From an uncultured Methanomicrobiales archaeon (GTDB lineage: Archaea; Halobacteriota; Methanomicrobia; Methanomicrobiales; Methanospirillaceae): a stretch of 64,000 bases of DNA. How positions within the stretch are numbered: position 1 is the first letter of the stretch; each line of letters opens with the position of its first letter. A program made the translations under genes and the position numbers. The notes below the pieces were generated by a model, which did not search any database, was not told the origin of the DNA, and saw only the letters and a list, made by a program, of their open reading frames with translations. The DNA is taken from NCBI GenBank assembly GCA_963758915.1, contig CAVWXH010000016.1, positions 32,001 through 96,000 of the forward strand, in the 5' to 3' direction. This document shows positions 1,581 through 47,925 of this stretch, one piece after another.

Positions 1581-1622
1581 TTACCCCGATCAATCGCTCT
1601 ATTAGGGTACAGCACAGACCTA
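1581..1622. repeat. 42-bp direct repeat, copy 1 (copy 2 at 2203-2244)
   Basis: TTACCCCGATCAATCGCTCTATTAGGGTACA(G/A)CACAGACCTA, 41/42 identical between the copies. Confidence 0.9.
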
Positions 1623-1804
1623 ATCCGGCAGAGTGAATGTTTCGTCCTGAATCCCTCATTCCGCCGATGTCATAACGGAGCTAAATATTTTCAGCGAATT
1701 TCTGCATAACTACTAAGGCAGTATGAGTGTCTCGTCTGCCATCGTGTCTCAATCTATTGGAATCATCTCCCTCTAACCCGATATAGTAATTTTCCCATTT
1801 TTCC

Positions 1805-2150
1805 GGCTCTGTAGAAACATGCATGAACGGGAAGTTCACACCCAAACCATGAAAATGCCGCGTTCAAAATCTCTTCATTTTGGTGGCCGTTAGGCATGTA
1901 GGAAATCCTCTCAAATCTATCTTGCAGATTGGTAATTCCAAAATTTCGTCACGCTCCCGGGGCTCCGCCCCGCCGCTGTGGCGACCCCGGTTGGGATAGG
2001 GAATAATCTCCAAATCTCTGAAATTTCCTTGAATGTCCCAATTGAACCCTGCCAATGAATATCTTACGGGGGTGGGGCAGGGAGGGGGTGAAACCCCCTC
2101 CTGTCTACGTATCTGCTCTTTTTTTAAATATGCAGGGTTTCTACAGAGCC
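1805..2150 (+). mobile_element. MITE-like element: TIR-module A-core(forward)-TIR
   Basis: Perfect 14-bp TIR GGCTCTGTAGAAAC (1805-1818) / GTTTCTACAGAGCC (2137-2150); flanks ATTTTTCC / ATTTTTTCC look like a target duplication; internal sequence repeated at many loci. Confidence 0.85.
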
Positions 2151-2202
2151 ATTTTTTCCTTCACTTTCCGTGTCACAGACAACCCGTTACACCCCTCCCA
2201 CC

Positions 2203-2244
2203 TTACCCCGATCAATCGCTCTATTAGGGTACAACACAGACCTA
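2203..2244. repeat. 42-bp direct repeat, copy 2, just upstream of uvrA
   Basis: Matches 1581-1622 with one mismatch; ends 16 bp before the uvrA ATG. Confidence 0.9.
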
Positions 2245-2260
2245 TTTCCCACTGTTAACA

Positions 2261-5182
2261 ATGAAGAAAATAGTCATAAAAGGGGCCCGGCAGCACAACC
2301 TCAAAAATATCACGGTCGAGCTCCCACGCGATAAATTAATTGTCATTACCGGCCTTTCCGGGTCCGGGAAGTCAACCCTTGCATTCGATACTATTTACGC
2401 CGAAGGGCAGCGAAGATATGTTGAATCGCTTTCAGCATACGCCCGACAGTTCCTCGGGTTGATGCAGAAACCGGATGTTGATGCAATTGAAGGGCTATCT
2501 CCTGCAATCTCGATCGAACAGAAGACCACATCGAAGAACCCGAGAAGTACCGTTGGCACGGTCACGGAGATTTACGACTACCTCCGGCTCCTTTTTGCAC
2601 GTATCGGTGTCCCGTACTGCCCTGTTCACAATATCCGGATTGAGGCACAGTCGCCGGTCCGCATCGCGGAAAGCATTGCAGAAGAATATCCGGGCCAGGT
2701 AACGATCCTTTCACCAATTATCAGGCAGAAGAAGGGCACCTACCTGCAGGTAATAAAAGACCTGAACAAGGAAGGCTATGCAAGGGTCCGTATCAATGGC
2801 GAGATCCACCGCACCGATGAAGAAGTCCCCCTTGAACGGTATAAGAAGCACGATATCGACGTGGTCATCGACCGGCTCGACTCAACTGATCGCTCACGTC
2901 TCGCGGAAGCCTGCGAAAATGCACTGAAGAAATCCGAAGGGCTGGTTATTGCTTCCGGTGGTGACGGAAAGGAAACCACGTACTCGGCAAACATGGCCTG
3001 CCCTGAATGTGGTATCACGTTCGAGGAACTGCAGCCGAGGATGTTCTCATTCAACAGCCCGTTCGGTGCCTGCGAGGTATGTAACGGTCTCGGGATCCGG
3101 ATGGAATTTGACCCGGACCTGATTATCCCGGACAGGAAACTCTCACTCGCTGATGGTGCGGTCGCGATGTACCGTAATTTTCTCGACGGTTACCGGAGCC
3201 AGCACCTCGGTGCCGTTGCAAAACACTTCGGTTTCTCGGTGTTTACCCCCATCAATGACCTTACCACACCGCAATATAATGCCCTGATGTTTGGTTCCGA
3301 AGAACAGGTCCGGTTCTCGATGAGCATGAAGAACGGGGATGCCCACTGGTCTCACAAGGGGGCATGGGAGGGGCTCCTGCCCCAGGCGACCCGCCTGTAT
3401 CACCAGACCCAGTCTGAATACCGGAAACGTGAACTCGAGAAATTCATGCGGATATCAGATTGCCCGAAATGCCATGGCAGGCGCCTGAAGGACAAGATCC
3501 TGGCCGTAAAAATTGCCGGGCATTCAATTATCGACATCACCGATTTACCGGTGACAAAATGCATGGACTTCTTCAAAACAATTGAATTAAACGAAAAAGA
3601 ACAGGAGATAGCGAAGCAGGTATTGAAGGAGATCAATGCCCGGCTCGAATTTCTTGAAAAAGTCGGGCTCGGGTACCTCACGCTCTCCCGGAGTGCAGGG
3701 ACGTTATCCGGTGGGGAAGCCCAGCGGATCAGGCTTGCCACCCAGATAGGCTCGAACCTCGTCGGTGTCCTCTATGTCCTCGATGAACCCTCAATCGGGC
3801 TCCACCAGCGGGACAACCAGAAACTGATTGACACCCTGCGCCGGCTCCGGGACCTCGGGAATACCCTGATCGTGGTCGAACATGATGAGGACACCATCCG
3901 GCATGCCGATTATGTCGTCGACATGGGGCCCGGTGCAGGGCTCCACGGGGGATATGTCGTCGCAGAGGGGACCCCGGTACAGATCGAGCGGAATAAGAAG
4001 TCCCTTACCGGCCAGTACCTTGCACGGACGATGAGGATTGATGTACCCGAGAAAAGAAGAAAAAGCAGGCACCATGTCCGGATAACCGGCTGCAGAGAAA
4101 ATAACTTAAAAGGAATCGATGTGGAGATCCCGATCGGTGTATTCACGGTCATCACCGGTGTATCGGGTAGCGGGAAATCCACCCTTATTTACGATACGCT
4201 CTACAAGGCCCTGATGAGGGTGCTCTATAACTCGAAGGAAAGTCCCGGGAAATATGAAAACCTGGAGTTTGACAGCGAGATTGACAAGGTAATCGTGATC
4301 GACCAGAGCCCGATCGGAAAGACACCCCGGTCGAACCCTGCGACGTATACCAAGGTATTCGATGAAGTCCGGAAAATCTTTGCCGAATCAAAGGAGGCGA
4401 AGGTACGGGGGTACCAGCCCGGAAGGTTCTCATTTAACCTGAAGGGTGGCCGGTGTGAGGCCTGTGAAGGGGACGGGCTGATCAAGATCGAGATGAACTT
4501 CCTCCCTGATGTCTATGTCGAATGCGAGGAATGCAAGGGGTCACGGTATAACCGGGAAACACTCGAGGTGAAATACAAGGGGAAATCAATATCTGATGTC
4601 CTGAATATGACGGTCGAAGAGGCAACCGAACTATTTGTAAATATTCCGGCAATACACCAGAAACTTGAGACCCTCTCGGCAGTAGGGCTGGATTATATCA
4701 AGTTAGGCCAGAGTTCAACCACGCTTTCCGGAGGAGAAGCACAGAGGATCAAACTTACCCGCGAGCTCGCAAAAAAAGCCACCGGGAAAACGATCTACTT
4801 CCTCGACGAACCCACAACCGGCCTCCATTTCCATGACGTCAAAAAACTGATCCGGGTCCTTGATGAACTGGTAGCCAAGGGAAATACCGTCGTTGTCATC
4901 GAACATAACCTGGATATCGTCAAATCTGCGGATTATATTATTGACCTCGGGCCTGGTGGGGGCGATGCCGGTGGTGAAGTGATTGCGACCGGTACCCCTG
5001 AGGAAATCGCAGGAAATAAAAAGAGTTACACCGGAGAGTTCCTCAAAGTCCTGCTCGACGATCGACCGGAAAAACAGCCGTCCCAAGCGGTGCATGGTAA
5101 TGGAAATACAACCATCCGTAGTAAAGTCGAAAGCCCGGAGAGCAGGGAAGGTATAAAGATCATACCGATCGGTAATTGGTAA
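2261..5182 (+). CDS. uvrA: Excinuclease ABC subunit A
   Basis: [16 protein letters not shown] start, two Walker A motifs ([16 protein letters not shown]), two LSGGEAQRI signatures, CxxC zinc fingers. Confidence 0.98.
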
Positions 5183-5521
5183 AAGCCCTGAAAATGTAAG
5201 AACTGGCATTTCCTGGGAAATACCGGGAAAAATTAAGAATTGCCGGGAATGGAATATAAGCACGTAGTGGTGAAAAGGCAGGAACAAACAGTGGAATAAT
5301 TTCAAGGGTATGTATCCTGAATAATTGTCCTAGCCGGCCAGGGATACCGATCTAACTGGAACAACCCATGCGATATCGTTTTTTTTCAATTACCTGATAA
5401 AACTCAATTTTATATCTTTCGTCATTCGTTCCAGCCTGGTTTGACTATTGCATCGCCCCTCCATGAGATCCGGTAAAAAATATGATGCATAAACCGCTGC
5501 CGTTGTCAGGAGGACCTGACA

Positions 5522-7075
5522 TTGATAGATCTCTCCATGGTACCTGAAAGTCCGGGCTGCTATATCTTCCGTGATCCGATGCGACGATTCTCTATGTAGG
5601 TAAGGCAAAAAATCTTAAAAAACGGGTTACATCATATTTCCAGAAAAGTGACCATGATACAAAGACCCTCGCGCTGATCAGCCACATAAGTTCGCTCGAC
5701 TTCATGGTCACCAGCAACGAGGTTGAGGCCCTGATCCTTGAAAACAGTCTGATCAAGGAGAACCAGCCGCGGTACAATATCGATCTGAAGGATGCGAAAC
5801 AATACGCCTATATTGAGCTCAACGGATGAGGAGTTCCCCTGTATCAGGATTGCACGGAAGGCAACAACAAAAGGGACGTTTTTCGGACCATTTGTGTCAG
5901 CAGCCGAAAGGGACTACGTGTATTCTGTCGTAAAAAAAGTATTCCGGTTACGGACCTGTAAAAATCTCCGCAGGAGGGCATGCCTCCGGCACCACATCCA
6001 TACCTGTACCGCCCCCTGTCTCGGAGATCTCACGGTCGAAGATTACGGGGAACAGGTAAAAAAAGCAGTTTTGGTATTAAAGGGCCGGGGGACTGAACTT
6101 GTCCGGAAGCTGAAGGATGACATGCAGGCCCATTCTGAATCACAGGATTACGAAGGGGCAATGATGGTCCGGAACCAGATCAATGCAATAGAACGGCTGG
6201 GGCAGCGCCAGGATATGGTCCGCCCCTCTGATACCGAGGAAGACATTATTAATTACCTTGTTCAGGACGACAAAGTTTACCTGATGCTCTTTCCCGTTCA
6301 TTCCGGTACCCTTGCGAATAAAAAGGAGTATGTGTTCGATTATCGTGAGGATTTCTTTGAAGAATTCCTGGTCCAGTACTATTCGTTACATGAACCGCCC
6401 GGAGAACTGGTGGTGCCCGAGCCGGTCAGTGAACCGATGGAAGAATTTCTTTCAGGGCAGAAGGGCAGGAAAGTAACGGTTACCATACCCCAGAGAGGTG
6501 CAAAACGGAGGCTCCTTGATCTCATCAGGGTGAATATCGAGACGGTGTTTTTCGGGGACGAAATAAAACTTCATGAAGTCAGGGACCAGCTGGGCCTTTC
6601 AGATCTCCCGAGGGTGATTGAATGTTTCGATATCTCTCACCTGTCAGGAACTTCGGTTGTAGGTTCAATGGTCCGGTTCAGCGATGCCCGGCCGGACAAA
6701 AAGAATTACCGCCGGTTCCAGATCAAGACTGTTGAAGGGGTTGATGATTTCATGGCGATAGGTGAGATTGTCCGTCGCCGGTATTCCAGGTTAAAGGATG
6801 AAGGCAGCCCTATGCCAGACCTCGTGATGGTTGACGGTGGCAAAGGGCAGCTACATGCTGCGGTAAAGGAAATTAAAAAGTTAGGGCTTTCACTTCCCGT
6901 CATCGCCCTCGCAAAACGCGAAGAGGAGATCTACATGACCGGCCATGCTCACCCGATCCCCGTTGACCGGAAGGAGAGGGCCTCGTTGTTTCTCCAGGAG
7001 ATACGGGATGAAGCACACCGGTTTGCAGTTACCTATCACCGGTTGCTCCGGAAAAAGAAATCGATCAAAGGATAA
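5522..7075 (+). CDS. uvrC: Excinuclease ABC subunit C (two apparent frameshifts near 5577 and 5820)
   Basis: TTG start after AGGAGG; GIY-YIG N-terminus reconstructed across frames (PESPGCYIF / ILYVGKAKNLKKRVTSYF...EALILENSLIK); main ORF has IECFDISH, DGGKGQL, RDEAHRFA. Confidence 0.92.
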
Positions 7076-7088
7076 TATTGGGAAATTT

Positions 7089-7160
7089 GGTTTTATGAAA
7101 ACAGACATGAACCGTGAGTTCAATTGATCGGGGTACACTTCCCGTTTATGTGTGTTTCTA
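7089..7160. repeat. Mini element of two module-A ends in inverted orientation
   Basis: GAAAACAGACATGAACCGTGAGTTCA ... ACTTCCCGTTTATGTGTGTTTCTA; the second part is the reverse complement of the module A start. Confidence 0.6.
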
Positions 7161-7168
7161 TAATGTTC

Positions 7169-7432
7169 TGCTTTGTTGAAACCCTGCGGGGTCATAAAAA
7201 GAAGAGGGAAATACGAATACGGGAGAGAGTTTCACCCCCTCTCTGCCCCACCCCCAGTAAGATATTCATTGGGCAGGGTTTCGGCGAAGGCACATTAAAT
7301 CCAGATTATTTTTGGATAGTCTCTATCCCAACCGGGGTCGCCAAAGCGGCGGGGCGTGAGCCCCGGGAGCGTGACGGAATTTTCGAACGTACCCGAAGTC
7401 GCTAGAAATTATCAGAGCATTTCTACAGAGCC
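7169..7432 (-). mobile_element. MITE-like element, core only
   Basis: TGCTTTGTTGAAAC ... ATTTCTACAGAGCC; core motifs on the reverse strand (TATCCCAACCGGGGTCGCCAAAGCGGCGGGGC); flanks TAATGTTC / TGAAGTTC (6/8). Confidence 0.8.
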
Positions 7433-7670
7433 TGAAGTTCAAAATGTATGGTATGAATCCAGGGTTTTCCTGCAGCATCTTGACGTCAGGAATATCACGT
7501 GAAATGCAGGTATCCAAATTATTATTGAATATCCGGCTGATAAATTTGTGAATTACCAGGCATCTGAATAAAAAATTTGTAAACCAATAATTGACCTTGA
7601 TTCAGGTTTAGAATAAAAAATTTAAAAATAATCCCGGAAAAACAATGATCTGATTTCACAATTCACTACC

Positions 7671-9606
7671 ATGACCGATTTTAACCTGCATGCACCATTC
7701 GAACCAAAAGGCTCCCAGCCTGAGGCAATACAGAAACTGGTCACGCGGTATCAGTGAAGGGATGCAATACCAGACACTTCTCGGGGTTACCGGGTCGGGT
7801 AAGACGTTTACCATGGCAAACGTGATCAGGGATTCAGGAAGGCCTGCCCTGGTCATCGCTCACAACAAGACCCTTGCAGCACAATTCTACAATGAATTCC
7901 GGGAATTTTTCCCTGATAACCGGGTCGAATATTTTGTATCATACTATGACTATTACCAGCCTGAATCGTATATCCCCGCAAAAGACCAGTATATCGAGAA
8001 AGATTCGCAGATAAACCCGAAGATCGAGCAACTCCGCCTGTCAGCGACCGCATCGCTCCTGTCCCGGCGGGATGTAATTGTTGTCGCCTCGGTCTCCTGT
8101 ATATACGGTCTTGGCCGGCCGGAAAATTTCCGGAATATGGGGTTCGAGGTAAAAGTAAACGAACGGAGTTCAAGGAAACAGATCATCAGTGACCTGGTCG
8201 CCTGCCAGTTCCAGAGAAATGACCTTGAACTCATGCCCGGACGTTTCAGGGTGAAAGGAGATACCATTGACCTGATCCCCGGTTATTTCAATAATATCAT
8301 CCGGGTCGAACTGTTTGGGGACAACATCGAACGGATCATGGAGATCGACAAAAATACCGGACAGGTCAAAGAGAAGATGAACTATTTCTACGTATACCCT
8401 GCACGGCATTATGTTATTCCGGAGGAAGACCAGAAACGTGCGATGGTGACCATACGGGAGGAATTGAAAGAACGTCTTCCGGAACTCGGGCTCATCGAAT
8501 CATACCGGCTTGAACAGCGGACCCGGTACGACCTCGAGATGATCGAGGAAAGCGGGAGCTGCAAGGGGATAGAAAATTATTCCCGGCACTTTGATTTCCG
8601 CAAACCGGGAGAAAAACCCTATTGTCTCCTCGATTATTTCCCTGATGATTTTATTCTCTTTATTGATGAGAGTCACCAGACTATACCGCAGCTTAACGGG
8701 ATGTACAAGGGAGACCGTTCGAGGAAACAGTCCCTTATTGATTACGGGTTCCGCCTTCCAAGTGCGTATGATAACCGGCCGCTCATGTTCAAAGAGTTCG
8801 AGCAGTACATGCACCAGGTCATCTTCGTATCCGCCACCCCTGCGGACTACGAACGTGAGCATTCGGGCCAGGTCGTCGAGCAGATTATCAGGCCGACCGG
8901 GCTTGTTGACCCTGAAGTCGAGGTCAGGAAGACGGAAGGCCAGACAGAGGACGTGATCGGTGAGATCGAGACCACGATTGCCCGTGGTGACCGGGTACTC
9001 CTGACAACCCTGACGAAAAAGCTTGCCGAGGAATATACCGAGTACCTTGCCGGCCGGGGGATCAGGACACGGTACCTGCATTCAGAAATAGATACGCTCC
9101 AGAGGACCGAGATCATCAGGGAACTGAGGCTTGGTAAGTTCGATGTGCTTGTCGGGATCAACCTTCTCCGTGAAGGGCTCGATATCCCGGAAGTGGGGTT
9201 TATCGGGATCCTCGATGCTGACAAGGAGGGGTTCCTGCGGGACGCGAGAAGCCTGATCCAGATTATCGGGCGGGCAGCCCGTAATGTCAATGCCCATGTG
9301 GTATTATACGCTGACAATATCACGAAGTCAATAGAACTGGCACTTTCGGAGACGAAAAGGCGCCGCGAGATGCAACTTGCTTACAACAAGGAGCACAACA
9401 TCGTCCCTCAGACCATAATAAAACCGGTACGAGAGAAGGAGGTCGATATCAAGGATGTCAAGCACATTCCGAAGGTTGAGTTGCCGAACCTGATCATCGA
9501 ACTTGAAGCAGCAATGAAGGCCGCTGCAGAGAACCTTGATTTCGAGGAGGCAATCCGGATACGCGACCAGGTCAATTCATTGAAAAAGAGGCTCGGGGAG
9601 AGTTGA
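7671..9606 (+). CDS. uvrB: Excinuclease ABC subunit B (apparent frameshift near 7745)
   Basis: ATG 7671 gives MTDFNLHAPFEPKGSQPEAIQKL, then shifts into LLGVTGSGKT; also YYDYYQPE, DESH, GINLLREGLD, GRAAR and a C-terminal UVR motif. Confidence 0.95.
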
Positions 9607-9626
9607 AAGGAGAGATTGTAATTTTT

Positions 9627-9979
9627 ACCTCTGTATAAACACACATGAACGGGAAGTTCACACCCGGATGATTGAATAGCTCGTTAATAATCTCCTTATA
9701 TTGGGGTCCTTTCAGGCATTTTCATTGGAAATCCTACGGGTAATAAAAAAACTAGTAAAACTGCTTAGAATGGGGTTTCACACCTTCCCCGTCCTACCAC
9801 CTTTAAGATATTCCTGGCAAGGATTTAACTGGGGCATTTAAAAAAAAATTTTAGAGGTTGTGAGATCATACCCTATCCCAACCGGGGTCGCCAAAGCGGC
9901 GGGCCTGAGCCCCGGGAGCGTGAGTAAATTTTTGAATAACCTAATGCACAAAATAGAGTGAGAGGGTTTCACCAAAGGG
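9627..9979. mobile_element. MITE-like element: TIR-module A-core(reversed)-TIR
   Basis: Degenerate TIRs ACCTCTGTATAAAC / GTTTCACCAAAGGG; ACACATGAACGGGAAGTTCACACCC then GGAAATCC junction and reverse-strand core. Confidence 0.8.
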
Positions 9980-10824
9980 CTATTTCATTCTAATCCGGAA
10001 TACCACGCTGACTTGGGACTTCTGCATCCAGGCGTCACTTTCGTCCGGGATAGTATTTTTTTCATGTTAACCTGTTTTCTCTTGTTGTAAAATAACGTTT
10101 TGTGAGGATTCCGGCACTCCCGGATAATCTATCATAAAAAAACGGGTAGAACTAGCAGAAATTCAGAATCTGGTTGTTATGTTCTCTCAAAAATGGATAC
10201 GTATAGAATAGTCTGGCAGGCTGATGTATGGGGAGATCGATCTGAAAAAAGGACAAAGAGGAATGTATTTATAAATAATTGTATCCTGGTATAATACTCT
10301 GCATGGTTTACCGTGTTAAGCTGTTCAGTAACTGGAACATTTTTTTCATTTCAATACCCGTTCTCCATTTCAATTATTCTGGTATTCCGGAATCCTGTAT
10401 TGATACTCAAATGACATTATTTTGTAATAACCGCGCGTAAAGCCGTTTTCATAAAAATGTCTGCCAATACGCTGACATATGGCTGCCGGAAAAAAATCTC
10501 ATATACTGGAAAGTGTTTACCTTGTTAAGCTATTAACCAATTATATTCAATTTGGCCTTAATTTCTGTCAATCCTACCCCTATCACTTTGCAAATTCTGT
10601 ACCTTAGTATGGAACCCGTTGACACCCTGATATCACATTTAACGCGCTCCGGTGATGCGATATCGGAAAAAACGGGTGTATAAAAGACCAAAATTCACGA
10701 AAAGTTTAAATATGTTACAGGAGAGGATATGTTGAATACATTTATATCGGGGTTTTGGGATGTCAAGCATCGCAGATTTCCGATTCAAGGATGTACAAAA
10801 CCAGACTGAGCTCAGGTGATCAAG

Positions 10825-13800
10825 GTGACAACAACGAAGTTTACGAATGCGGCTATTATTATTGGAGTATTGCTGTTACTGGTGCTGCCAGCGTGTGCAG
10901 TCGCACCGACAATTATAAGCACATCTCCCAGTAGTGGAATGAATAATACTCTTGTATTGGTTTACAACATCGCAGGAACTGATTTTCCTGATCAAAACAA
11001 TGCGAGTGTGTATCTGAATCGGACAGGACAAACCGACTTCTATGCAGATAGTGTCATTGTAGATTCAAGCACTCAAATTCAGTGTATTCTGGATCTGACG
11101 CAGAAACCACTGTTTGGACAATGGAATGTTGTTGTAAAAAATACTTCGAGTCATGGAAACCGGGATTGGAATTAACAACTTTTCCGTAATAAATCCCGCA
11201 CCGACTCTGACTGGAACAGGTATTACACCGACTTCTGGGTATAACAACAATACCGCATTACCATTTACGGTAACAGGGACCAATTTCATATCCGGCGCGA
11301 GGGTAAACCTTACAAAATCCTTATCTCCAAATATAACTGCAACGATTTCCAGTTATTCAGGGAACACAATTACCGGAACCTTAGACATTTCAACTGCAGC
11401 AAATGGCACCTGGTATGTCTATGTTACCAACCCCGATGAACAAGTCACATCAGAAGTGAAGACATTCACTATCAACTGGCCACTTCCCACGATTTCCGGA
11501 TTTATACCGTCCCAAAGTATAAATAACGGCCCTCAGTCGATGACGATCAACGGGAACTCTTTCAGGTCCGATTCCACAGCTTATTTGAATAAGACTGGAT
11601 ATGCTGATATCAACCCGATCAGTATGCCTACGCCCACATCAAACCAGACGATTCCTCAATTCAATCTTGACGGTGTTCCTGTGGGTTCTTGGAATGTGAT
11701 AGTCCAGAATTCCGATGGTCCAAAAGCGACAGCAGCTAATAAATTCTGGATATTTTATCCCGATGCACCCGCTGTTGCTAATATCACTCCTTCCACGGGT
11801 GTAAATACAACTACTATCAGCGGATTTATGATTGGGGGTTCAGGATTCCGGCCAGGTGTCATAGTTTTACTGAATAAAACAGGCCAGACCGATATCCTTG
11901 CAACATCCATTGTTGTGAATAACCTGAGCTATATCACCTGTGATCTGCCAATATCAGGAGCACAAACCGGCGCATGGGATGTTAAAGTAATAAATAATGA
12001 TACTCTCCCCAGTCTTACCTCTCCCACATTCACCATCACCACGCCACCATCGCCAACTGCATCTTTCACTGCAGTTCCTATATCGGGGCCAGTCCCACTG
12101 AATGTCCAGTTTAATGATACATCAATAAATGCTCCAACTGCATGGAATTGGAGTTTCGGCGATGGTACCCCTGACTTCAACACAACAAATCCTTCGTTAA
12201 GAAATACAACACACACCTATGCAGCAGGTACCTGGTCAGCCCAGTTAACAGCAAGCAATGCCTATGGTAGCTCGCCAAGTGCACCACAGGTTATTACCGT
12301 GTCCCCTCCACCAGTTGCCAACTTCACTTATACACCAGTAAATGGCTTTGCACCCCTGCATGTTTTCTTCAGTGACACATCCGTGACAGGTATTACCAGT
12401 CAATTGTGGCACTTTGGAATTGATGCACATACGGCAACAGGGCCGACTACGGACTTCACGTATAATGATCCGGGTACCTACACGGTCAACCTTACTGCTA
12501 CCAATGCATCAGGGACCAGTTCAATTCAAAAAACTGTCCTTGTGACGACAAAACCCGTTGCGAACTTTACTGGTACCCCAACGTCGGGCACAAAGCCCCT
12601 ACTCGTGAACTTCACGGATCTTTCAACAGATACAACAGGATGGTACTGGGACTTTGGTGATGGTACAAACTCGACCCTGCAGAACCCGAACCACTCCTAC
12701 ACTGCTGTGGGATCTTACACTGTCAGTCTGATTCCCTCCAATGCTGGTGGCAATGGGGACCTCCTGGTCAATACCGGCTACATTACAGTGCTCCCAGAGA
12801 TCCCGGTTGCCAGTTTTACCGCAAATCCAGTGATGGGAACTACCCCACTTCTGGTAACATTCAATGATACGTCATCCAATATTCCAACGTCATGGGCCTG
12901 GGATTTCGGAGATGGAGCGACATCGGCACTAAAGAATACGACCCATACGTTCACCACCGGGACCTGGATTGTTAATCTTACCGCCTCAAATAGCGATGGG
13001 AGCAACACGACGGAACCAGGTACAACAATAACCGTCAATCCAGCTCTCCCTGAAGCTGCCTTTACTGCGGACCACTACTCAGGGATTGCTCCTCTGATGG
13101 TGAACTTCACTGATTCATCCCTGTATGCACCTACTGCCTGGAACTGGAGTTTCGGTGATGGGACATATTCACTGTTGCAGAACCCCTCAAAGGTTTTCAG
13201 TGTTGGGACCTGGAATGTTACCCTTACAGCATCGAATAGTGCAGGAAGTAATACTTCGTCACCGGCTGCTATAACAGTAAACCCGGTACCTGTACCACCC
13301 GTTGCAAATATTATTGCAACCCCCGACAAGGGATTCGTTCCTCTTACGGTAACGTTTACTGATGGTTCAGAATCAGGAATCTTAAGTTGGAACTGGAACT
13401 TTGGTGATGGATCCTCGAGCACATTGCAAAATCCAACTCCAAAACTCTATAGCAGTGCACAAAATTTCACGGTAAATCTGGAAGTTACTAATGCATCTGG
13501 CACGAACTCGACAACGAAGGCAATTATTGTAACCAACAAGCCGGTTTCCGATTTCAACGCAACGCCGACGTCAGGCATCAGGCCGTTACTGGTAAACTTT
13601 ACCGACCTGTCTACTGACGCAACCGGATGGTATTGGGACTTTGGAGACGGGACCAATTCCACAGAGCCAAACCCTGGTCACATATATGCTGATGAAGGGA
13701 CCTACAGCGTCAGCCTGACTGCAAAGAATGCCGGTGGAAACGGGGATACGGTAGCCAAAATCGATTACATCTCTGCAAGAATTCCAGGACCAGTCGCGGG

Positions 13801-15546
13801 TTTCACCGCTGCTCCGACACATGGAGATGTCCCATTGGCAGTCCAGTTCAATGACACCTCCACAAATGGACCCACTTCCTGGAACTGGGACTTTGGAGAT
13901 TTCAGCTCTTCAAGCATGCAAAATCCAAGCCACATTTACACAACACCCGGGGTCTATACCGTAAGGCTTGAGGCGTCGAATACAGGTGGTACAAACACGT
14001 CCGTAATGCCAGACCTGATTAACGCTACCCAGCCGAAACCCGTAGCGGAATTCACCGGCTACCCAGCAGTGGAATTGCACGGAGTGACCGAGTTCCACTT
14101 TGTTGACCTGTCAACAAACAACCCGACTTCATGGCTCTGGAATTTCGGTGACAGTGCTACATCCAATGTACAGAATCCCAATCATACGTATCAAACAAGA
14201 GGAAATTACACAGTTTCACTGACTGTGACGAATGCAGGTGGCAGTGATACCGCTAAGCAGAGGGTCCGATTGTTGTAACAAACCCACGACCAATCGCGAA
14301 TTTCACCGGTACACCAAGATTAGGGTCAGTCCCTCTGAAAGTCCAGTTTACTGACACATCTTCAGGTATTTCCCTACTACCTGGATATGGGACTTTGGGG
14401 ACAATACCATTGGAACCGGATCGTAACCCGGTCCATACTTACAATAAGGCCGGAAGTTACAATGTTCCCTTATGGCAATAGATGCCAGACCTCGGGATTT
14501 CCGCAATTCCACCCTGACGAGACCGGCGTACATAACAGCGACAAACACACCGTTTGCTGAATTCACTGCGAGCCCGACAAGCGGGATAGTCCCGCTCTTT
14601 GTGAGGTTTACAGACCAGTCACAGGGTAATCCGTTCCGGTACTACTGGAAGTTTGGAGACGGTGACGGTCTCCAGTGCGAAGAACCCCACACACTACTAC
14701 AAGAGACCCGGTGTATACACCGTTACGTAGACGGTCCAGAATATTGCTGGATGAATACAACGTCAAGGAGAACCTGATTACCGTAACGCACTGCCCGCAG
14801 GCAAGTTTCGTCGTAAATGCGACATCAGGAATTGCACCCAAGACAATCCGGTTCACTGACACCTCAACTGGTGTTCCGAATGCCTGGAACTGGGACTTTG
14901 GAGACGGGTCCCCGGTTCTCGACTGAACAGAACCCGGTCCACACCTACTATTCATCCGGTGCTCTATCAGTGTCCAGTTGATAGTGTTCGAACGGAATCG
15001 GGTCGAGCACGGCAACAAAGCCCTCCCTGATTAGCATCGGAACCCCGACTGGTGCTGATTTCACGTTCAAGCCTGCAGAGGGTGATGTACCATTAATGAT
15101 ACAGTTTACCGATAATTCCGCGGGTGGTCCGATCCTCATCTACAAATGGCAGTTCGGCGACGGGTATGTTTCCAAAGATCCAGAACCCGGTCCATACCTA
15201 TATGAAACCAGGGAATTACACGGTGACCCTGACTATTACAGCCAATACCGGTGCAGTATCATCTGTCTCAAAGGAAGTAGTCCTGACAGGTACACCGGTA
15301 GCATCGTTCAAGGCAAACCCGACTGGCGGCTCAACTCCATTGACCGTCCAGTTCACCGATACCTCTTCAAATAATCCGACAACCTGGTTCTGGACATACG
15401 GTGACGGGACATTTGGGAATGTGAAAAATCCAGTCCATACCTATAATTCTCCAGGCACCTACACGGTGAAGATGTTCGCCAGTAACAGTTATGGCGACGA
15501 CACCGTTACCTATCCCGGCCTCATAAGTGTGAGCCAGTTCCCATAA
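10825..15546 (+). CDS. Large secreted surface protein: signal peptide, 4 IPT/TIG-like units, about 14 PKD repeats (several frameshifts)
   Basis: GTG after AGGTGA; hydrophobic leader ending LPACA; repeated PVANF-x-P..G..PL-V-F-D-S...W-W-FGDG...NP-H-Y units continue across ORFs 11153-14278, 14472, 14675, 15096 and 15124; dense N-x-S/T sequons. Confidence 0.88.
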
Positions 15547-15749
15547 CTTTTTTTAGAAACGTAACTATTATCCGCGGATAACTTTTTGAAAGGTTTCGTT
15601 GTTACATAGTTATTTACAGGTAATTATTCACGGAATTAATCAAATTCCACGTAGGAATAAACGGTATGATGGGCAAAAACCGGCTTTTTTTAACCTTCTA
15701 AACCCATCTTCATGATATCAGGTTGTCCGGTAATTATCTCCTGCTCCCG

Positions 15750-15950
15750 GTGCGGAGCTCCGGGAGTGTGACGAAATTTTGGAATTACCAATCTGCAAGA
15801 TAGATTTGAGAGGATTTCCCATCAAATCGTCCGGGTGGGAACTCCATGTTCATGTGTGTTTCTACAGAGCGTGCTATGAGCCGTTGGCTCATAGATGAGT
15901 ATGAAAAAGGTCGTCTTTCAGGTGGTTCGTGGAGTTTTTCATACCAGCCC
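15750..15950 (-). mobile_element. Repeat-family locus: partial core, shortened module A, TIR, extension GGCTCATAGCAC and module B
   Basis: GTGACGAAATTTTGGAATTACCAATCTGCAAGATAGATTTGAGAGGATTTCC is the exact reverse complement of 1901-1952; GTTTCTACAGAGC at 15858-15870; 15871-15950 is homologous (reverse complement) to 27195-27275. Confidence 0.8.
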
Positions 15951-17005: not shown

Positions 17006-17109
17006 AGCACAGGTACTATTACTTCTTGGACCCTATCAACAGTTCGATGTAAAAACGTGCATGAAGCCAGATGGCTCCCGCACCGAAGCAATGAAAATTT
17101 GGAAATAAC

Positions 17110-17374
17110 GGCTTTGTTGAAATGCTCTAAAATCTATCTTTAAGATTAGGTTATTCCAAAATGTAATCACGCTCCCGGGGCTCATGGCCCGCCGCTTTGG
17201 CGACCCCGATTGGGATAGGGAATGATCGCTAAATGACTGAAAATTTTCAGGTACCCTTCAGTTGAACCCTGCCCCAGTGTATCTTAATGGGGGTGGGACA
17301 GGGAGGGGGCGAAACCCCCTCCTGTCTGAGCAGTTCTGTTATTTTTTTATTCCGCGTAGGATTTCTAAAGAGCC
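17110..17374 (+). mobile_element. MITE-like element, core only, with 7-bp target duplication
   Basis: GGCTTTGTTGAAAT / ATTTCTAAAGAGCC; AAATAAC at both 17103-17109 and 17375-17381. Confidence 0.88.
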
Positions 17375-17481
17375 AAATAACATTTTTCACTCCCAGTGCG
17401 TTGTTGGATCCAAAATTTCCAATGAAAATTCCATCTACAATTTCATTCTTTATGCCCGACCGCAGGGCGGTCATAGGCGGT

Positions 17482-17556
17482 TAATATGAAAATTCACCCC
17501 GGCATTTTAATTTTGCATGATTTTGGATTTTTGGTATCATGTCTGTTTTCATGAAA
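17482..17556. repeat. Module C of the repeat family
   Basis: TAATATGAAAAT...ATCATGTCTGTTT shared with 46182-46250. Confidence 0.65.
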
Positions 17557-22423: not shown

Positions 22424-22774
22424 GGCTTTGTTGAACCCCTCTCAAATCCAGTTTGCGGATTTGGGTATTGCAGAATTTCGTCATGCTATCGGGGCCCCGC
22501 CCCGCTGCTTTGGCGGCCCCGGTCTATAGGAAATAATCTTCAACTCTCTGAACATTTCTTCCAATGCTCCAATTGAACCCTGCCAATGAATATGTTATCA
22601 GGAGTTGGGCAGGGAAGGGGTGAAACCCCTTACTGTCAATGTATTCCCTCGTTTTTTAACTAAGCAGGGTTTACCATGTACATGACTAAACGGACCCAGT
22701 ATATGGAAATTTTGAACGAGGCATTTTCATAGCCCTGGTGTGAACTTCCCGTTCATATGTGTTTCAACAATGCT
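22424..22774. mobile_element. MITE-like element: TIR-core(forward)-module A(reversed)-TIR
   Basis: GGCTTTGTTGAACC / GTTTCAACAATGCT; TGAACTTCCCGTTCA at 22741-22755; lies between convergent genes. Confidence 0.82.
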
Positions 22775-27194: not shown

Positions 27195-27732
27195 CGCTGG
27201 TATGAAAAACTCCGGCAGAACAATCTGAAATGCCAATTTTTTATGCCCATCTTTGACTATAAAGGCTCATAGCACGCTCTGTTGAAATAGTGCGTGTAAA
27301 AATAAAGGATGAAGTTAACTAACCCGGGGGAGGTTTCATCTCACATCTGCCAACCCACACACATGAACGGGAAGTTCACGCCCGCACCATCAAAATACCT
27401 CGATCATAATCTCCCTTATATCGGGTTAAGTTCAGGCAGTTTCATGGGAAACCCTGCGTAGTTAAAAAAACGAGGGAATGCGTTGACAGGAGAGGTTTCA
27501 CCCCCTCCCGCCCCACCCCTGATAAAATAAACACCGGAAGGGTTCAAATGGGACATTTTTGATAATTTAAGAGATTAAAGGTCATTTTCAAGCCCAACCA
27601 GGGTCCCAAAGCGGCGGGGTGGTGCCCCGGGAGCGGGGATAAATTTGGAATTACTTAATCAGCAGGATAGATTTATGTGGGTTCAACAAAGCCGGTTGTT
27701 CAACTACCTGACCTGAGGTTTTCTTACCAGCC
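27195..27732. mobile_element. Composite/nested repeat locus: module B, GGCTCATAGCAC, TIR with partial core, module A, reversed core, TIR, outer end
   Basis: GCTGGTATGAAAA (27196) and TTTTCTTACCAGC (27719-27731) form an outer IR; GCTCTGTTGAAAT at 27276; palindrome 27364-27378; GTTCAACAAAGCC ends 27693. Confidence 0.8.
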
Positions 27733-27936
27733 GGTTTTTTTCTCATCATTGTGATTAGCACCAGGAATTCATCAGGACTGGACCGGTAAAAAAATCTTCC
27801 TTGCGTTTCTGCTCTGTCAATACGCACCTCATGATATCATGTGGTTTACTTCACGATCGATACAACCTTTTTCCGCTACCGGAGTTCCATTCAGGAATAA
27901 AAAAGTATGGCCGTTTTATGACTGGTGACAGCCGGG

Positions 27937-28320
27937 TCACTCAATATCGAGTTTTCGTTTTCCCATGGATTCGATATACATAATTTCTTTTCCAACCTCG
28001 ATCCCCGCGAGTTTATCCGCGTCTGTCGGGATCTCGATTGTCTGAAAATCTTTCATGTCCATCATCTGGATTACATTTCCCGTGATGGTAATGACCTGCC
28101 CGCTCTTACGTTCAACAATAGGCACGTAGGTCCTTGCAGAAACCGGCTGTACAACTGAACGTTTTACACCGTCGAATATCCCCACTGCCTCTATCCTTGA
28201 TTTTGCAGCCCCGTGTTTGCCTGGTTTTGATATTGATATGGCAACGATCCTGCATGGTTCATCTTCGATGACCATGTAACGGCCTTCCTTTAATTTTCCA
28301 ATTTCGGTTTGTTCCTTCAT
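27937..28320 (-). CDS. eif5A: Translation initiation factor 5A
   Basis: SKPGKHGAAK hypusine motif. Confidence 0.97.
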   Translation of the reverse strand: MKEQTEIGKLKEGRYMVIEDEPCRIVAISISKPGKHGAAKSRIEAVGIFDGVKRSVVQPVSARTYVPIVERKSGQVITITGNVIQMMDMKDFQTIEIPTDADKLAGIEVGKEIMYIESMGKRKLDIE

Positions 28321-28399
28321 AGTCTAACTCCTTAAACGCAGTAGTAATTTATCTTTATGACATTACATAAATACAACGTAAGAATACCCTGGTGCTGAT

Positions 28400-29176
28400 A
28401 TGGAATTCCTCAAATCCTGTGATCAGATGGCGGTAGCAGTAGAGGATGCAATCCACGATCAGGTCGGAACCCTTGAGGGTGGCAGGATGATTAGAATGGG
28501 TGCAGACGGGACACCGACCAAGCTGATTGACCAGGTCGCCGAGGACTGCATCGTGACCTACCTTTCAGAACATCCGCTCTGTCGTACTTTGATCAGCGAG
28601 GAGCTTGGGAAACGTGAATTTGATGGCGAACAGGGTACCATATTCCTTGACCCGGTTGACGGGACCTATAATGCAGTGAATGGCATCCCTTTCTATGCCC
28701 TTTCAATTGCGTATGCCGAAGGGGGTATTGTTAATAAGGCATATGTGCGTGACCTTGCGAATGGAGAAACTTTTAGTGCAATTCGCGGAAAAGGTGCTCA
28801 TATGGCAGGGAAAATCCTCCGGGTCTCGCAGACTGCGAACCTTGACGAGGCGGCAATGAGCATCTATGGCCGCAAGTTTGACCCGAAGCGCGTAATGCAG
28901 CTTGGACAGAAGATCCGGCGGTGGCGTCTACTCGGTGCTTCTGCCCTTGAACTTAGTTATATCGGGGCCGGACGCATTGATGGTTTTATTGACCTCCGGG
29001 GGACGCTTCGGGTGACCGATGCAGCAGCAGGGATGCTCATCTGTACAGAAGCAGGAGGTTCCGTATCCGATATGAATGGAAATGCGATCAATTTCCCGGA
29101 CGAAGTGACCATCGGCCGGTGTCTGGTCGCTACGAATGCAGTCCTGCACCATAAGGTTATCGAGTACCTGAGGTAA
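28400..29176 (+). CDS. suhB: Bifunctional fructose-1,6-bisphosphatase/inositol monophosphatase
   Basis: [32 protein letters not shown]. Confidence 0.92.
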
Positions 29177-29181
29177 CAGGG

Positions 29182-29994
29182 ATGAAAATCATTCTAATAT
29201 CCCGGATTGATGACAGGGAGGCACTGCTTTACACTGAGCAGACTGGGCGTCTCCTTTCAGGCTGGGGCCATGATATCAGTTTTGATCAGACGACTGCCGC
29301 AGCCATCGGGGTCAGAGGGTGCTTGCTCGAGGAATCTGATGCATCCATGGCCGTGGTAATTGGTGGTGACGGGACAATACTCCACTCTGTCCAGCGCATG
29401 GTGAACCAGAAACCGATACTGGGTATTAACTGGGGGGAGGTAGGTTTCCTTGCAGACATAGAACCTGTGGAAGCAGAAAAGTTTCTACGGGATATGGGGC
29501 CCGGTTTCCCGATTGAAAGGAGAATGCGGCTTAATCTGATGTGGGATGGTGAAGTGCTGGGGAATGCCCTGAATGAAGCACTAATTATTACAAGCCGGCC
29601 TGCAAAAATGCTCAGGTTTGTTGTGGTGGTTGATGGAGTCCCCGCAGAAAAATTCAGGGCTGACGGGGTTCTTATCAGTACCCCGACGGGTTCTACTGCC
29701 TATGCAATGAGCGCTGGAGGACCCATTGTCGACCCCAGGATCGAGGGGGTAGTGCTGGTGCCCCTTGCACCGTACCTTCTCTCCTCCAGGCCTCATGTCA
29801 TCAGCTCCTCCCGCACACTTGAAATACGACTTGAAAGTGTCAAACCTGCAAAAATCGTAATTGATGGCCAGAATACCTTTGAATTTGAAACAGGAGGCAC
29901 AATTACCGTCCGGAAAGCCGCAGAGCCTGCGTTGTTTGTTGATGCGAGAAAGAATTTTTTTGAAAAGGTTGACCGGAAATTACGGCGCCTGTAA
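29182..29994 (+). CDS. nadK: NAD(+) kinase
   Basis: [37 protein letters not shown]. Confidence 0.95.
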
Positions 29995-30022
29995 AAAAAA
30001 ATGTTGTCCTAGTTGAAATGCC

Positions 30023-42163: not shown

Positions 42164-42488
42164 TGTTCTGTCGAAATTCCTGCGGTCTTGTTGAAATCCT
42201 ATACGAATAAAAAAATTAGACGGAACTACGAAGACAGGAGGGGGTTTCACCCCCTCCCTGCCCCACCCCCGTTAAGATATTCTTCGGACAGGGTTTTGGC
42301 GAAGGTTCAGTTAAATTCAGAGTATTGGTGGATATCTCTATCCCAACCGGGGCCGCCAAAGCGGCGGGGCGGAGCCCCGTAAGCGTGACAAAATTTTGGA
42401 ATACCCTCTTCATCAAGATAGATTTGAGAGCATGCCAACAGAGCCCTAAAAATCAGTAACATTCGGCTAAGAGGATTTCTACCAGGCC
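42164..42488 (-). mobile_element. Nested locus: intact core element (42184-42445) inside an older copy; a further degenerate half-core at about 42070-42136
   Basis: Inner GGTCTTGTTGAAATCC / CCAACAGAGCC; outer TGTTCTGTCGAAATTCCTGC (42164) / GAGGATTTCTACCAGGCC (42471-42488). Confidence 0.8.
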
Positions 42489-46085: not shown

Positions 46086-46465
46086 GGTTCTGTTGAAACA
46101 CACATGAACGGGAAGTTCACATCCGGACGATTGAAAATGCCTCGCTCAAAATGTATCTTTGTCGGGGTCCGTTTTGTCAGGTAATATGAAAATCCCCACT
46201 GGAAATTTCATGTTGTATGCTTGTGGCCTTCTGGCATCATGTCTGTTTAAATAGTTCAACCCTGGAGATTTAAAAAAAGAGGAGATACGTGGACAGGAGG
46301 GACTTTCACCCCCTCCGCGTCCCATCCCCGACAATCTACCCGATGGACAGGGTTCAACTGTAGTATTCCTGAACATTTCAATGATTTATACATCATTCTC
46401 AATCCTGACCGGGGTCGCCAGAGTTGCTGGGCGGAGCCCCGGGAGCGGGGGTAAATTTCAGGACA
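46086..46465. mobile_element. Repeat locus: TIR-module A-module C-reversed core (right end eroded)
   Basis: GGTTCTGTTGAAACACACATGAACGGGAAGTTCAC; module C 46182-46250; CCGGGGTCGCCA...GGCGGAGCCCCGGGAGCG. Confidence 0.8.
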
Positions 46466-46622
46466 CTCCACATGCTGTCACGATCACAGAACCTGTTTGC
46501 CTGTGACCTGGACCGCCATCATTGCGGGCCTGGGGAGTCCACCCTGTTGTTTATACCACCAGTCAGTGAAAGACCGGGAAAATTGAATAATCATGAGTAT
46601 AATTTACTATAAGACCCGATAC

Positions 46623-47012: not shown

Positions 47013-47186
47013 CGCTCTGTTGAAACATACATGAACGGGAAGTTCACACCCGGATCATGAAAATGCATCGTTCAGTATCTCCTTGTATCGGATGCAGATC
47101 AGGCATCTGCATGGGGGATCCTGCATATTTAAAAAATGGGATATACGTAGACAGGTGGGAATTTCACCCCCTCCCTGCACCACCCC
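47013..47186. mobile_element. Left part of repeat element: TIR-module A-first part of reversed core
   Basis: CGCTCTGTTGAAACATACATGAACGGGAAGTTCACACCCGG ... TTTCACCCCCTCCCTGCACCACCCC. Confidence 0.8.
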
Positions 47187-47204
47187 ATGTTCCCGGAGCA
47201 GGAG

Positions 47205-47925
47205 TCAACCGGGTTTTACCAGGTGGTTCTCTTCCAGTTCTCCTGCATGATATACCATTACGGTGACTGCTTCCCCCTTTGAAAACCGCCTCATCCGGTC
47301 GTCATATACTTTCTGTACATGCCGAAGATTGTGCCTGGTAAAATATTTCTCCATAAACTCCAGGAACGCTATTTCATGGGTGAGAATAGCATTTTCAAAC
47401 TCTTTTATCTGACGGGCAAGGCTGAGGCATTCCTCAATGGGAATTTCATGGTGGTAATCCCCGTGTTCATTGAGTCCTGACAGTCTGTCTCCATTCGATT
47501 TTTCCCATTTCATCGGGTTCGCGGTGGAGCATGTACGGGTATATCCGGCAGATGGAGAACCGCTGGTCATAGATCCGGCACCGGCCGTTTTCCAGGAACC
47601 AGCAGGGTCCGGGGGCATCACCTTTTGTACGCAATGCATAGCCAGATACATAAAAAATCCCGTTCTGGTCGCAGAACTCAGGGTAAGGGGCAGGTTCCAG
47701 TGCACCAGGATCAATTGTTTTAACCACGGTAACGTCGTGATCGAGTAAAAAAACGTGCCCATTGAATTCGTGGGTGCAGCAACGTGCGCAGTTGGTACAC
47801 CGGAACCCGATCTCTCTAATGATACCGGCAAGGCGGTCCGGCGGGTACTCAAAGAGGCTGTTTCTTTCCTGCGTTAATGCAATTATCTGAAAAGGGATCG
47901 GGACAAGAGAAACGACGATCACCAC
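47205..47925 (-). CDS. YkgJ family cysteine-cluster protein (frameshift near 47485; start uncertain)
   Basis: FRCTNCARCC, CWFL..GRCRIYDQRFSICRIYPY; continues SGLNEHG.. in the other frame. Confidence 0.82.

Follow-up and report, generated by a model that had tools for sequence, protein, structure and literature searches.

Modular MITEs of an uncultured Methanoregula share one fixed joint inside the terminal repeat

Correia elements of Neisseria, BOX elements of pneumococci and the BIMEs of enterobacteria are dispersed small repeats that occur with alternative ends or modules and with or without internal segments. Nested and chimeric MITEs, together with the derivatives that abortive gap repair leaves of cut-and-paste transposons, are known among plant and animal elements. 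The IncI shufflon occupies one locus, where the Rci recombinase, encoded by its own gene, acts at sfx sites longer than the one described below and switches protein tails. Here we describe a MITE family of an uncultured Methanoregula whose parts occur in several arrangements around a single joint, starting from a window of 64,000 nucleotides on contig C16. The group formed by the family and its partner IS presumably resembles the archaeal ISH1-type IS5 elements, which are ~1 kb long and make 8-bp duplications.

The genome containing the window holds ~184 loci of the family, defined by the terminal repeat GGCTYTGTWGAAAC and by 8-bp target duplications. Within these 184 loci, profile models gave 188 matches to a core, K, of ~240 bp and 76 to a module, A, of ~95 bp that is found at one end of K, at the other, or not at all. 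The 13-nt TIR occurs 156 times at up to two mismatches, versus 54 times in a shuffled genome. Copies of K alone mostly measure 255-263 bp from TIR to TIR, and A+K composites 344-357 bp. Short, multicopy, devoid of a transposase of their own, flanked by target duplications and sharing TIRs with an autonomous IS, the repeats are MITEs. That partner IS (C6:46100-47109, 1010 bp) has the same ends as the family and a single 285-aa ORF whose product matches NF033579 with 203 bits (cut-off 140) and PF01609 with 73.3 bits (cut-off 23); transposase matches occur at only three places genome-wide. With its DDE transposase, single ORF, length of ~1 kb, TIRs and target duplications, the partner belongs to the IS5 family. 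The C6 IS and an adjoining H module are bordered by TAAATAAC on either side, and IS copies of relatives (L026, L027, L031, L033 and L035) have the same ends and 8-bp duplications.

An nhmmer map built with the A and K models located the copies in the window (Table 1). K has a t-end, which is the TCTCAAATC end, and a p-end, the poly-A end reading CTGC..AAAAAA. The first-pass annotation had distinguished three configurations, with A on the t-end (i), A on the p-end (ii) or K alone between TIRs; all the window copies that it listed are present in the nhmmer map, and the pattern extends genome-wide. The A-core junctions read as it had given them: GGAAATCC at 1901 and 9740, GTAAACCC at 22683 and GGGGATCC at 47105. 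Two of its points needed amendment. The core at 7169, described as standing alone, does lie between TIRs but abuts a 44-nt inverted A fragment (7119-7162). A GAAA(C/T)CC site was said to occur three times per element; the outer TIR beside A reads GAAACAC, so the full heptamer GAAAYCC occurs only twice per composite, and GAAAC is what all three places have in common. An Rfam scan of positions 1700-10100 of the window gave no match at E values up to 1, and the hairpins are thus not explained by a known RNA family.

Table 1. Copies of the MITE family and their modules in the window
Feature	Position	Strand	Remarks
Copy 1, module A	1805..1909	+	Outer TIR GGCTCTGTAGAAAC, A body, eroded joint ..GTAGGAAATCC; nhmmer A match 1806-1896
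Copy 1, core K	1910..2150	+	t-end (TCTCAAATCTATC) adjoins A; distal TIR GTTTCTACAGAGCC; configuration (i)
Copy 1, whole A+K	1806..2150		nhmmer map; borders CATTTTTC/CATTTTTT; target duplication 7/8
5'-end fragment of A, 44 nt	7119..7162	-	nhmmer model positions 5-48; tip to tip with K at 7170
Core K alone, plain TIRs	7170..7431	-	From sequence and nhmmer
Module A	9627..9742	+	Joint ..CATTGGAAATCC to poly-A end of K; configuration (ii)
Core K	9743..9975	-	p-end (TACGGGTAATAAAAAAA) adjoins A; decayed distal TIR GGGTTTCACCAAAGGGC; nhmmer span of the A-K copy 9629-9957
Truncated H-A-K composite, configuration (i)	15748..15949	-	H outer tip at 15949; in 15748-15870 K cut to 63 nt and A to 51 nt; extra H ~15871-15949
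Core K alone	17111..17374	+	nhmmer map
TIR-K-A (A inverted), configuration (ii)	22425..22774	+	nhmmer map 22441-22772
Compound locus: H, 80-nt K p-end fragment, A-K composite (configuration ii)	27195..27692	+	nhmmer A-K 27357-27674
Core K alone	42187..42450	-	nhmmer map
A, 81-nt module C, K p-end first; configuration (ii)	46087..46470	+	nhmmer map 46088-46470
A and truncated K p-end, configuration (ii)	47014..47222	+	Eroded joint GGGGATCC; nhmmer map

The joint of A reads ...CATGG/GAAAY(C/G)C, the slash falling between bases 9 and 10 of the end repeat. The 3' end is preserved in 65 copies of A; 26 of them join a t-end directly and a further 12 a p-end, and all of these direct joints read ...CATGG/GAAAY.., a few of them in eroded form. 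This genome-wide tabulation bears out the earlier proposal that one precise breakpoint is reused. Modules or partial copies intervene before K in 19 of the 65, a complete TIR stands at the joint in one, another has an eroded but similar joint, and six are without K. The sequence common to the joint and the distal TIR is GAAAYCC only, 7 nt (at most ~8 nt). Further modules, C, D and H, occur in the family; these and A begin with, or precede, a look-alike of the inner end repeat (..ATG[A/G][A/G]AAAYCC). The joint is also seen in the form ..TTTTCATGGGAAAYCC, and look-alikes form palindromes of the type ATGAAAAY..RTTTTCAT.

K carries IS-like sequence at both of its ends, and in a relative (L041) A caps the left end of an autonomous IS copy through the same joint. 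That was the one A-bearing copy among 36 Methanoregula-type IS loci scanned in relatives, none of which carried H or K; at two of the relatives' IS loci scanned, an unrelated IS110-like insertion had an A stub nearby. An IS bounded by two A ends was not found in this genome. These contexts bear on the idea that A moves as a small hitchhiker, as C/D and H may do too, and inserts specifically into the end repeat of IS and MITEs between GTA and GAAAY, with GAAA(Y) on both sides, which we regard as possible but rather doubtful. A hitchhiker that targets the end repeat could land in either end of K or in an IS end, and A is indeed flanked by GAAAC...GAAAT on the t-end, the p-end and the IS left end alike, keeps a constant polarity relative to the capped end and is joined to many end subtypes. 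K, moreover, is present in all 12 other same-genus genomes searched and full-length A in some only. However, every A start bears a TIR tip, no A body was found away from such a tip except in truncated copies, and the inverted similarity between the ends of A itself spans only ~6-7 nt. The duplications made by the family transposase are of 8 bp rather than 4-5 bp, and the 5' part of A is elsewhere a regular long end repeat, belonging to other MITEs from further genera of the same taxonomic family. TIR-tip typing (C/T at base 5, A/T at base 9) assigned the native TT type to the outer tip in 3 of 10 typed p-end composites versus 37 of 48 plain p-ends, a difference that counts against insertion on few typed copies and that flip and insertion models both fit. 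Solo copies of A were also considered as ends of a larger element; they proved to be truncated elements beside ordinary host genes.

Composites transpose whole, with their arrangement as a unit. Target duplications with at least 7 of 8 positions alike flank 14 of 22 composites with A on the t-end, 20 of 44 copies of K alone and 1 of 4 composites with A on the p-end, versus 1 of 70 shifted controls, and H lies inside the target duplication in 4 of 7 composites that bear it. Copies with A on the p-end look old: of 15, 4 show two recognisable TIR tips, and their only end branches below 0.05 belong to the duplicates on contigs C12 and C13, compared with 11 among 32 composites with A on the t-end.

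The two modules, A and K, have histories of their own. Their divergences correlate with r = 0.30 over 1081 pairs, and discordant pairs combine 95.6% identity in A with 78% in K, or 97% in K with 79% in A. On the K tree the configuration labels change 37 times, against 41.7 with shuffled labels, and the well-supported branches imply no fewer than 5-6 changes for each label; the clade-per-configuration pattern that the first-pass annotation associated with one historical event followed by copying did not appear. The two deep p-end lineages are each found capped as well as uncapped, as are several t-end subtypes, and one pair of a capped and an uncapped K is 99.5% identical. Separate histories and K-end subtypes with and without A together indicate that the joint was made or lost repeatedly. 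It is accordingly most improbable that a single random deletion or fusion gave rise to each configuration, with nothing but copying thereafter: arrangements do transpose as units, as such a course would have it, but the K tree shows an almost random spread of labels, and no fewer than two deep p-end lineages and several t-end subtypes, all of which also occur uncapped, carry A joined at the same base. Very unlikely, too, is an ancestral symmetrical element with A on both ends from which the present forms derive by differential precise loss of A alone. Related MITEs of another genus do carry an A-like extension at both ends, precise module deletions occur, and at the locus at 22441 A lies on opposite ends in G006 and in G000 and G010 with K unflipped. 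Yet none of 117 copies of K is doubly capped, the sole candidate (C16 102691-103438) being a nested insertion, and loss alone cannot yield the discordant identities of A and K.

Precise deletion of a module in situ is documented by one event. Along more than 6.6 kb, contigs C12 and C13 share ~99% identity, and a single 130-bp D+C indel flanked by TIR-like direct repeats distinguishes them; because the next-best copy of D+C is only 90.8% identical, the indel is a deletion. The two contigs may be strain variants in the metagenome bin rather than paralogues. Precise loss between direct repeats, which the first-pass annotation had proposed as one outcome of an enzyme-directed, shufflon-like exchange, thus takes place. 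The other proposed outcome, ongoing inversion of the core, fared worse. In 480 pairs of opposite configuration, identity never rises above 86.5% in both modules at once (the best pair has 86.3% in K and 86.5% in A), same-configuration pairs reach 95-99%, and mosaic breakpoints also fall inside A and inside K. A co-occurring recombinase gene, which that annotation suggested looking for, is absent from the window. Tyrosine-recombinase (PF00589) loci number three in the genome, on C3, C18 and C5 and none on the window contig, and no serine recombinase (PF00239) match was obtained in the genome, which is 94% complete.

Comparison with related genomes shows the arrangement kept at five shared loci across species whose flanks diverge by ~9-10%. 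The A-K copy at 9627 has the same joint at the orthologous site in G010, K alone at 42187 the same arrangement in G006 and G010, and A-C-K at 46087 the same arrangement in G006. K at 17111 is present in G010 and its site is empty in G006; the segment 7077-7465 is absent as a whole from the orthologous, empty sites of G010 and G005. At 22441, G010 has the same arrangement as the window and G006 has H-A-K, with A at the opposite end and K unflipped; at 47014, the site in G006 is occupied instead by an H in reversed orientation together with a TIR stub. The occupants of these two sites and of 15748 are all arranged differently in G006. Since they belong to different subfamilies (H type; K 71%), we read the three sites as re-occupied and did not count them as flips in situ, although rearrangement in place followed by divergence might also have produced them. 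The orthologous alignment of the locus at 27276 is complex. The 20 read runs contained at most 28% of the sampled words; three contig runs yielded short pieces only, broken at the repeats, and the joints in them were mostly those of other copies. The elements break assemblies, and two family copies border a 2.3-kb inversion between species.

We therefore consider it improbable that the family's transposase or a recombinase exchanges strands at GAAAYCC, with inversion of K across the inverted pair and deletion of A across the direct pair. In favour of such an enzyme are the exactness and reuse of the joint, the position of the shared motif in the inner end repeat, where a transposase is likely to bind, the precise deletion between direct TIR-like repeats and the three differing sites in G006, if these are read as flips. 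But recent pairs in opposite orientation are lacking, p-end composites look old, the five shared loci hold their arrangement between species, and at 22441 A switches side while the orientation of K stays constant; the differing occupants differ in subfamily as well. The shared site is of 7 nt, A also caps an autonomous IS end, the elements are dispersed and non-coding, the window lacks a recombinase gene, and the 94% complete genome showed no serine recombinase. Quite unlikely as well, in our estimate, is a broader version in which the inner motif (..ATGGGAAAYCC / ..GTAGAAAYCC) truly serves for recombination, and at it the transposase or a recruited host factor swaps, deletes and occasionally inverts end modules.

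The explanation that we favour, and hold to be somewhat more probable than the remainder, is rare joining and loss at short homologies, followed by unit-wise copying by the IS5-family transposase, with no present-day inversion switch. The MITEs would be moved in trans by the transposase of the ~1.0-kb IS, and the apparent occurrence of the core in both orientations would amount to a cap, A, on either terminus of K, which describes the observed arrangements equally well. Joints would be gained and lost in rare events at the shared GAAAYCC and TIR-like motifs, ordinary recombination between copies would then reshuffle longer stretches of homology, and each arrangement would afterwards be amplified as a unit through transposition. 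We infer the molecular route of joint formation; candidates are copy-choice or slippage in replication, or repair of transposition gaps. The exactness of the joint across many K-end subtypes, despite only 7 shared bases, could point to an enzyme or to targeted insertion.

The family is a clean natural example of the modular assembly of small non-coding mobile elements, with one cap and one splice base in MITEs and their parent IS, precise loss in place, and re-occupation of sites. Its copies make up a visible share of the intergenic DNA of uncultured Methanoregula; through that share, the assembly breaks and the copies flanking an inversion, the family bears on methanogen genome plasticity and annotation. 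If an enzyme does work at the joint, the finding would assign a new activity to an IS5-type transposase, and cap exchange between MITEs and their parent IS by site-specific recombination inside the TIR would be a mode of transposon evolution that, to our knowledge, has not been described for prokaryotic IS elements. In the part of the literature that our search reached, we found no paper on Methanoregula MITEs or on such a TIR-internal cap.

Like other IS5-derived MITEs, the elements are short and non-coding, bear the TIRs of an IS, are flanked by 8-bp duplications, reach high copy number and have an autonomous partner; they differ in that a ~95-bp module is spliced inside the end repeat, on either MITE end and on an IS end, and in the stackable modules C, D and H, each starting with a TIR look-alike. 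With Correia elements, BOX and BIMEs they share the occurrence of small repeats in module combinations, but sequences, hosts and partners are others, and here the joints lie at a TIR-internal heptamer and the IS itself can be capped. The shufflon likewise has segments in both orientations beside a constant part, with short border repeats, whereas the present family comprises 184 dispersed non-coding loci with a 7-nt site, lacks a recombinase next to them and gives no hint of recent flips. Nested and chimeric MITEs offer mosaics with short-homology breakpoints, nested insertions and replacement at a site by other family members; the strong reuse of a single joint position, atypical there, sets the Methanoregula elements apart.

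The pattern of capped and uncapped repeats described in the first-pass annotation is real: these are modular MITEs with a cap that joins the end repeat internally, always at the same base. Reading window positions 1600-2600, 7000-7600 and 9400-10200 together with a repeat search confirmed the family. The cap, module A (approximately 95-105 nt), starts with terminal-repeat sequence (GGCTCTGTAGAAAC) and continues as ACACATGAACGGGAAGTTCAC; the core, K (approximately 240 nt), contains two G+C-rich hairpins and has two distinct termini, a t-end (TCTCAAATCTATC) and a poly-A p-end (CTGC/CTTCGG..AAAAAA). Two rounds of nhmmer searching across the 2.38-Mb genome, whose 18 contigs include the window as positions 32001-96000 of C16, returned 76 A matches and 188 K matches at 184 loci, and the 13-nt terminal repeat (at most 2 mismatches) occurs 156 times in the genome compared with 54 in a shuffled genome. 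Queried with window positions 1805-2151, all 12 of the other same-genus genomes searched contained the family, and parts of the window sequence are present in sediment, freshwater and wastewater metagenome runs. An Rfam scan of window positions 1700-10100 gave no match, and the literature listings searched contained no description of these elements.

An nhmmer map of the window recovered every copy in the first-pass list in its reported configuration, that is, with A on the t-end, A on the p-end or K alone. Among the 65 A copies genome-wide with an intact 3′ end, A directly joins the K t-end in 26 and the p-end in 12, all at one place, ...TTT(T/A)CATGG|GAAA(T/C)(C/G)C.. (bar, joint), a few of them eroded, including both eroded joints named earlier. 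In 19, additional modules or partial copies separate A from K; a full TIR occupies the joint in one, another shows a similar eroded joint, and six lack K. The 117 near-full K copies comprise 70 alone, 32 with A at the t-end and 15 with A at the p-end (one a nested insertion). Where a plain repeat precedes K, the sequence is GGCTCTGTA|GAAATCC.. or GGCTTTGTT|GAAACCC.., indicating that A substitutes for the outer nine repeat bases, which puts the joint between bases 9 and 10. The site was thought to occur three times per element; the full heptamer is found twice per composite (A+K unit), the outer repeat beside A being GAAACAC. At 7169, where K had been described as standing alone, a core copy is indeed present, but an inverted 44-nt A fragment adjoins it; the block that they form is missing at the same site in two related genomes, G010 and G005.

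Further optional modules extend this architecture. C and D, each approximately 65-70 nt long, separate the A body from the TTTTCATGG joint. H (approximately 80 nt, 56 matches) begins with a terminal-repeat look-alike, GGCTGGTATGAAAAAC, and lies outside the complete terminal repeat yet within the target duplication, with duplications of at least 7/8 beyond H in four of seven H-carrying composites and TAAATAAC bordering an H+IS unit on contig C6 on both sides. The palindrome ATGAAAAY...RTTTTCAT occurs in every module, and each module has an inner-repeat look-alike before or after it.

A Pfam search of the genome found transposase matches at three places. Against NF033579, the NCBIfam IS5 model, the ORF of the partner IS reaches 203 bits (cut-off 140), and many Methanoregula genomes carry copies of approximately 1005 bp that share these ends and are bordered by clear 8-bp target duplications. 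Scoring a duplication when at least 7 of 8 positions matched, we observed duplications around 20 of 44 K copies alone, 14 of 22 A-on-t-end composites, one of four A-on-p-end composites with recognisable tips and one of 70 shifted controls, which indicates that K alone and composites each transpose as a unit. Over approximately 17-45 nt, the t-end of K is similar to the right end of the IS and the p-end to variants of the IS left end. The family comprises MITEs of an IS5-family element.

Features in the window, elsewhere in the genome (contigs C2-C7) and at L043, an IS locus in a relative's genome
Feature	Location	Observation
Partner IS	C6:46100-47109	1010 bp; same terminal repeats as the family; one 285-aa ORF
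Two degenerate IS copies	C3:83470-84048	One interrupted by a K insertion
Tyrosine recombinase	C3:81648-82106	Best match in the genome; ~1.1 kb from degenerate IS copies at C3:83227-84520
H with repeat stub	C2:126765; C3:349989; C7:67846	H, then just 8-20 nt of terminal repeat, then unrelated DNA; could be footprints of inner-element excision via its own intact repeat
Mini-element	C6:43290-43368	79 bp; A 5′ part alone; each end carries the 24-nt inverted repeat GCTYTGTTGAAACACACATGAACG
A fragment and K tip	window 7119-7175	Inverted A fragment and K p-end tip, tip to tip, few bases between
Direct repeat	window 1581-1622; 2203-2244	42-nt copies, 622 nt apart (98% identity), on either side of copy 1 and its flanks; upstream repeat copy matched once in G010 and once in G005
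Tandem repeats	window 12063-15469	Five to six, diverged, ~250-1000 nt spacing, in a long coding region (families D1, D5); probably a repeat-domain surface protein
Inverted segment	window 27717-29995	2.3 kb; inverted in G006 versus G000 (the studied genome) and G010; bordered by inverted-orientation K copies (27448-27674; 30040-30193) and hence looks like a MITE-mediated genomic inversion
ORF at L043	2367-3626, minus strand	419 aa, in the right end of an IS5-family copy without recognisable right TIR; by eye, probably an IS110-type transposase
A stub at L043	3784-3832

A is not tied to K. At L041, an autonomous IS in a related Methanoregulaceae genome, A occupies the left end through the same joint (..GTTTCATGG|GAAATCATTTTTCC..), and in other genera of the archaeal family, MITEs with different cores have the A 5′ part as their long terminal repeat. 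These occurrences mean that a core in both orientations is better put as a cap A that can occupy any terminus of the IS/MITE family, at one fixed base. That A is itself a hitchhiker targeting TIRs is an alternative that we consider possible though doubtful.

Configuration was scored as three states across an IQ-TREE phylogeny built from the 117 K copies. The states are placed almost at random, with 37 changes needed versus 41.7 for shuffled labels, and the well-supported branches alone require at least 5-6 changes per state. The configurations thus do not each form one clade, the pattern that the first-pass annotation expected of one historical event followed by copying, and an origin in single events is very improbable. 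Both deep p-end lineages (..GAGGGAATACGTTGACAGG and ..AACAGAACTGCTCAGACAGG types) occur capped and with a plain repeat, as do several t-end subtypes. We consider it distinctly unlikely that the present forms arose by differential loss from an ancestor capped at both ends. Identities in A and K correlate poorly (r = 0.30; 1081 pairs, 47 composites): window copy 1 and C16:434284 are 95.6% identical in A but only 78% in K, and C9:120172 and C3:419970 are 97% identical in K but 79% in A. The histories of A and K are separate, and the tree, end subtypes and A-K mismatch together indicate repeated formation or loss of the joint. In pairwise alignments, breakpoints also fall within K (approximately 95 nt in) and within A (a swapped patch of approximately 55 nt), so part of the reassortment reflects ordinary recombination between copies rather than exchange at one site.

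One module loss can be seen directly. The regions C12:18480-25135 and C13:1574-8352 share approximately 99% identity along more than 6.6 kb, and C12:22400-23200 and C13:3500-4450 within them differ by one 130-bp indel corresponding exactly to D+C, with borders ..A|TTTCCAATGAAAATCC.. and ..G|TTTTCATGGGAAACC... Because no other D+C copy in the genome is more than 90.8% identical, the shorter form represents a deletion between TIR-like direct repeats. The two regions represent either a segmental duplication of recent origin or a pair of strain variants placed in one bin, a distinction that affects how the indel is interpreted. The earlier idea that exchange between a direct pair removes a module is borne out here, by a route that requires no dedicated enzyme.

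The companion proposal, shufflon-like inversion of the core, fared differently, as several observations argue against frequent flipping. In none of 480 opposite-configuration pairs are both modules more than 86.5% identical; pairs sharing a configuration reach 95-99%, and one capped and one uncapped K are 99.5% identical. The p-end composites appear to be old: just four of 15 retain two recognisable tips, and end branches shorter than 0.05 lead only to the C12/C13 duplicates among them, compared with 11 of 32 t-end composites. In DNA syntenic with the window in the related species G006 and G010 (flanks approximately 87-94% identical), arrangement is conserved at 9627 (G010), 19633 (both), 22441 (G010), 42187 (both) and 46088 (G006). 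Three sites differ in G006: 22441 holds H-A-K with A on the opposite end and K unflipped, 15748 a whole element reversed and without A, and 47014 just a repeat stub plus an H in reversed orientation. Their occupants belong to other subfamilies (distinct H type; K 71% identical, no closer than paralogues), which disfavours in-situ inversion; from sequence comparison, we read these sites as favoured A/T-rich targets that were probably re-occupied or had their occupant replaced. Ordinary insertion polymorphism is evident from the empty counterparts of 7077-7465 and 17100-17483 in relatives and from a contig of metagenome run X2 in which 1804 is connected to 2166, bypassing copy 1. The three tyrosine-recombinase loci found in the genome all lie outside the window, and a search for serine recombinases gave no match in the genome; enzyme-directed exchange at the joint is improbable.

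We lean towards turnover of the joint by short-homology events, together with homologous recombination between copies. Joints would arise and dissolve at GAAAYCC and TIR look-alikes, by copy-choice or slippage or by template switching in excision-gap repair, perhaps helped by the 13-bp hairpin of A that ends exactly at the joint, and homologous recombination between copies would shuffle larger blocks. Collectively, these results reveal trans-mobilised modular MITEs in which a fixed TIR-internal joint is reused with many partners, module histories are separate and one module pair was precisely deleted in situ; the family is probably not a shufflon.
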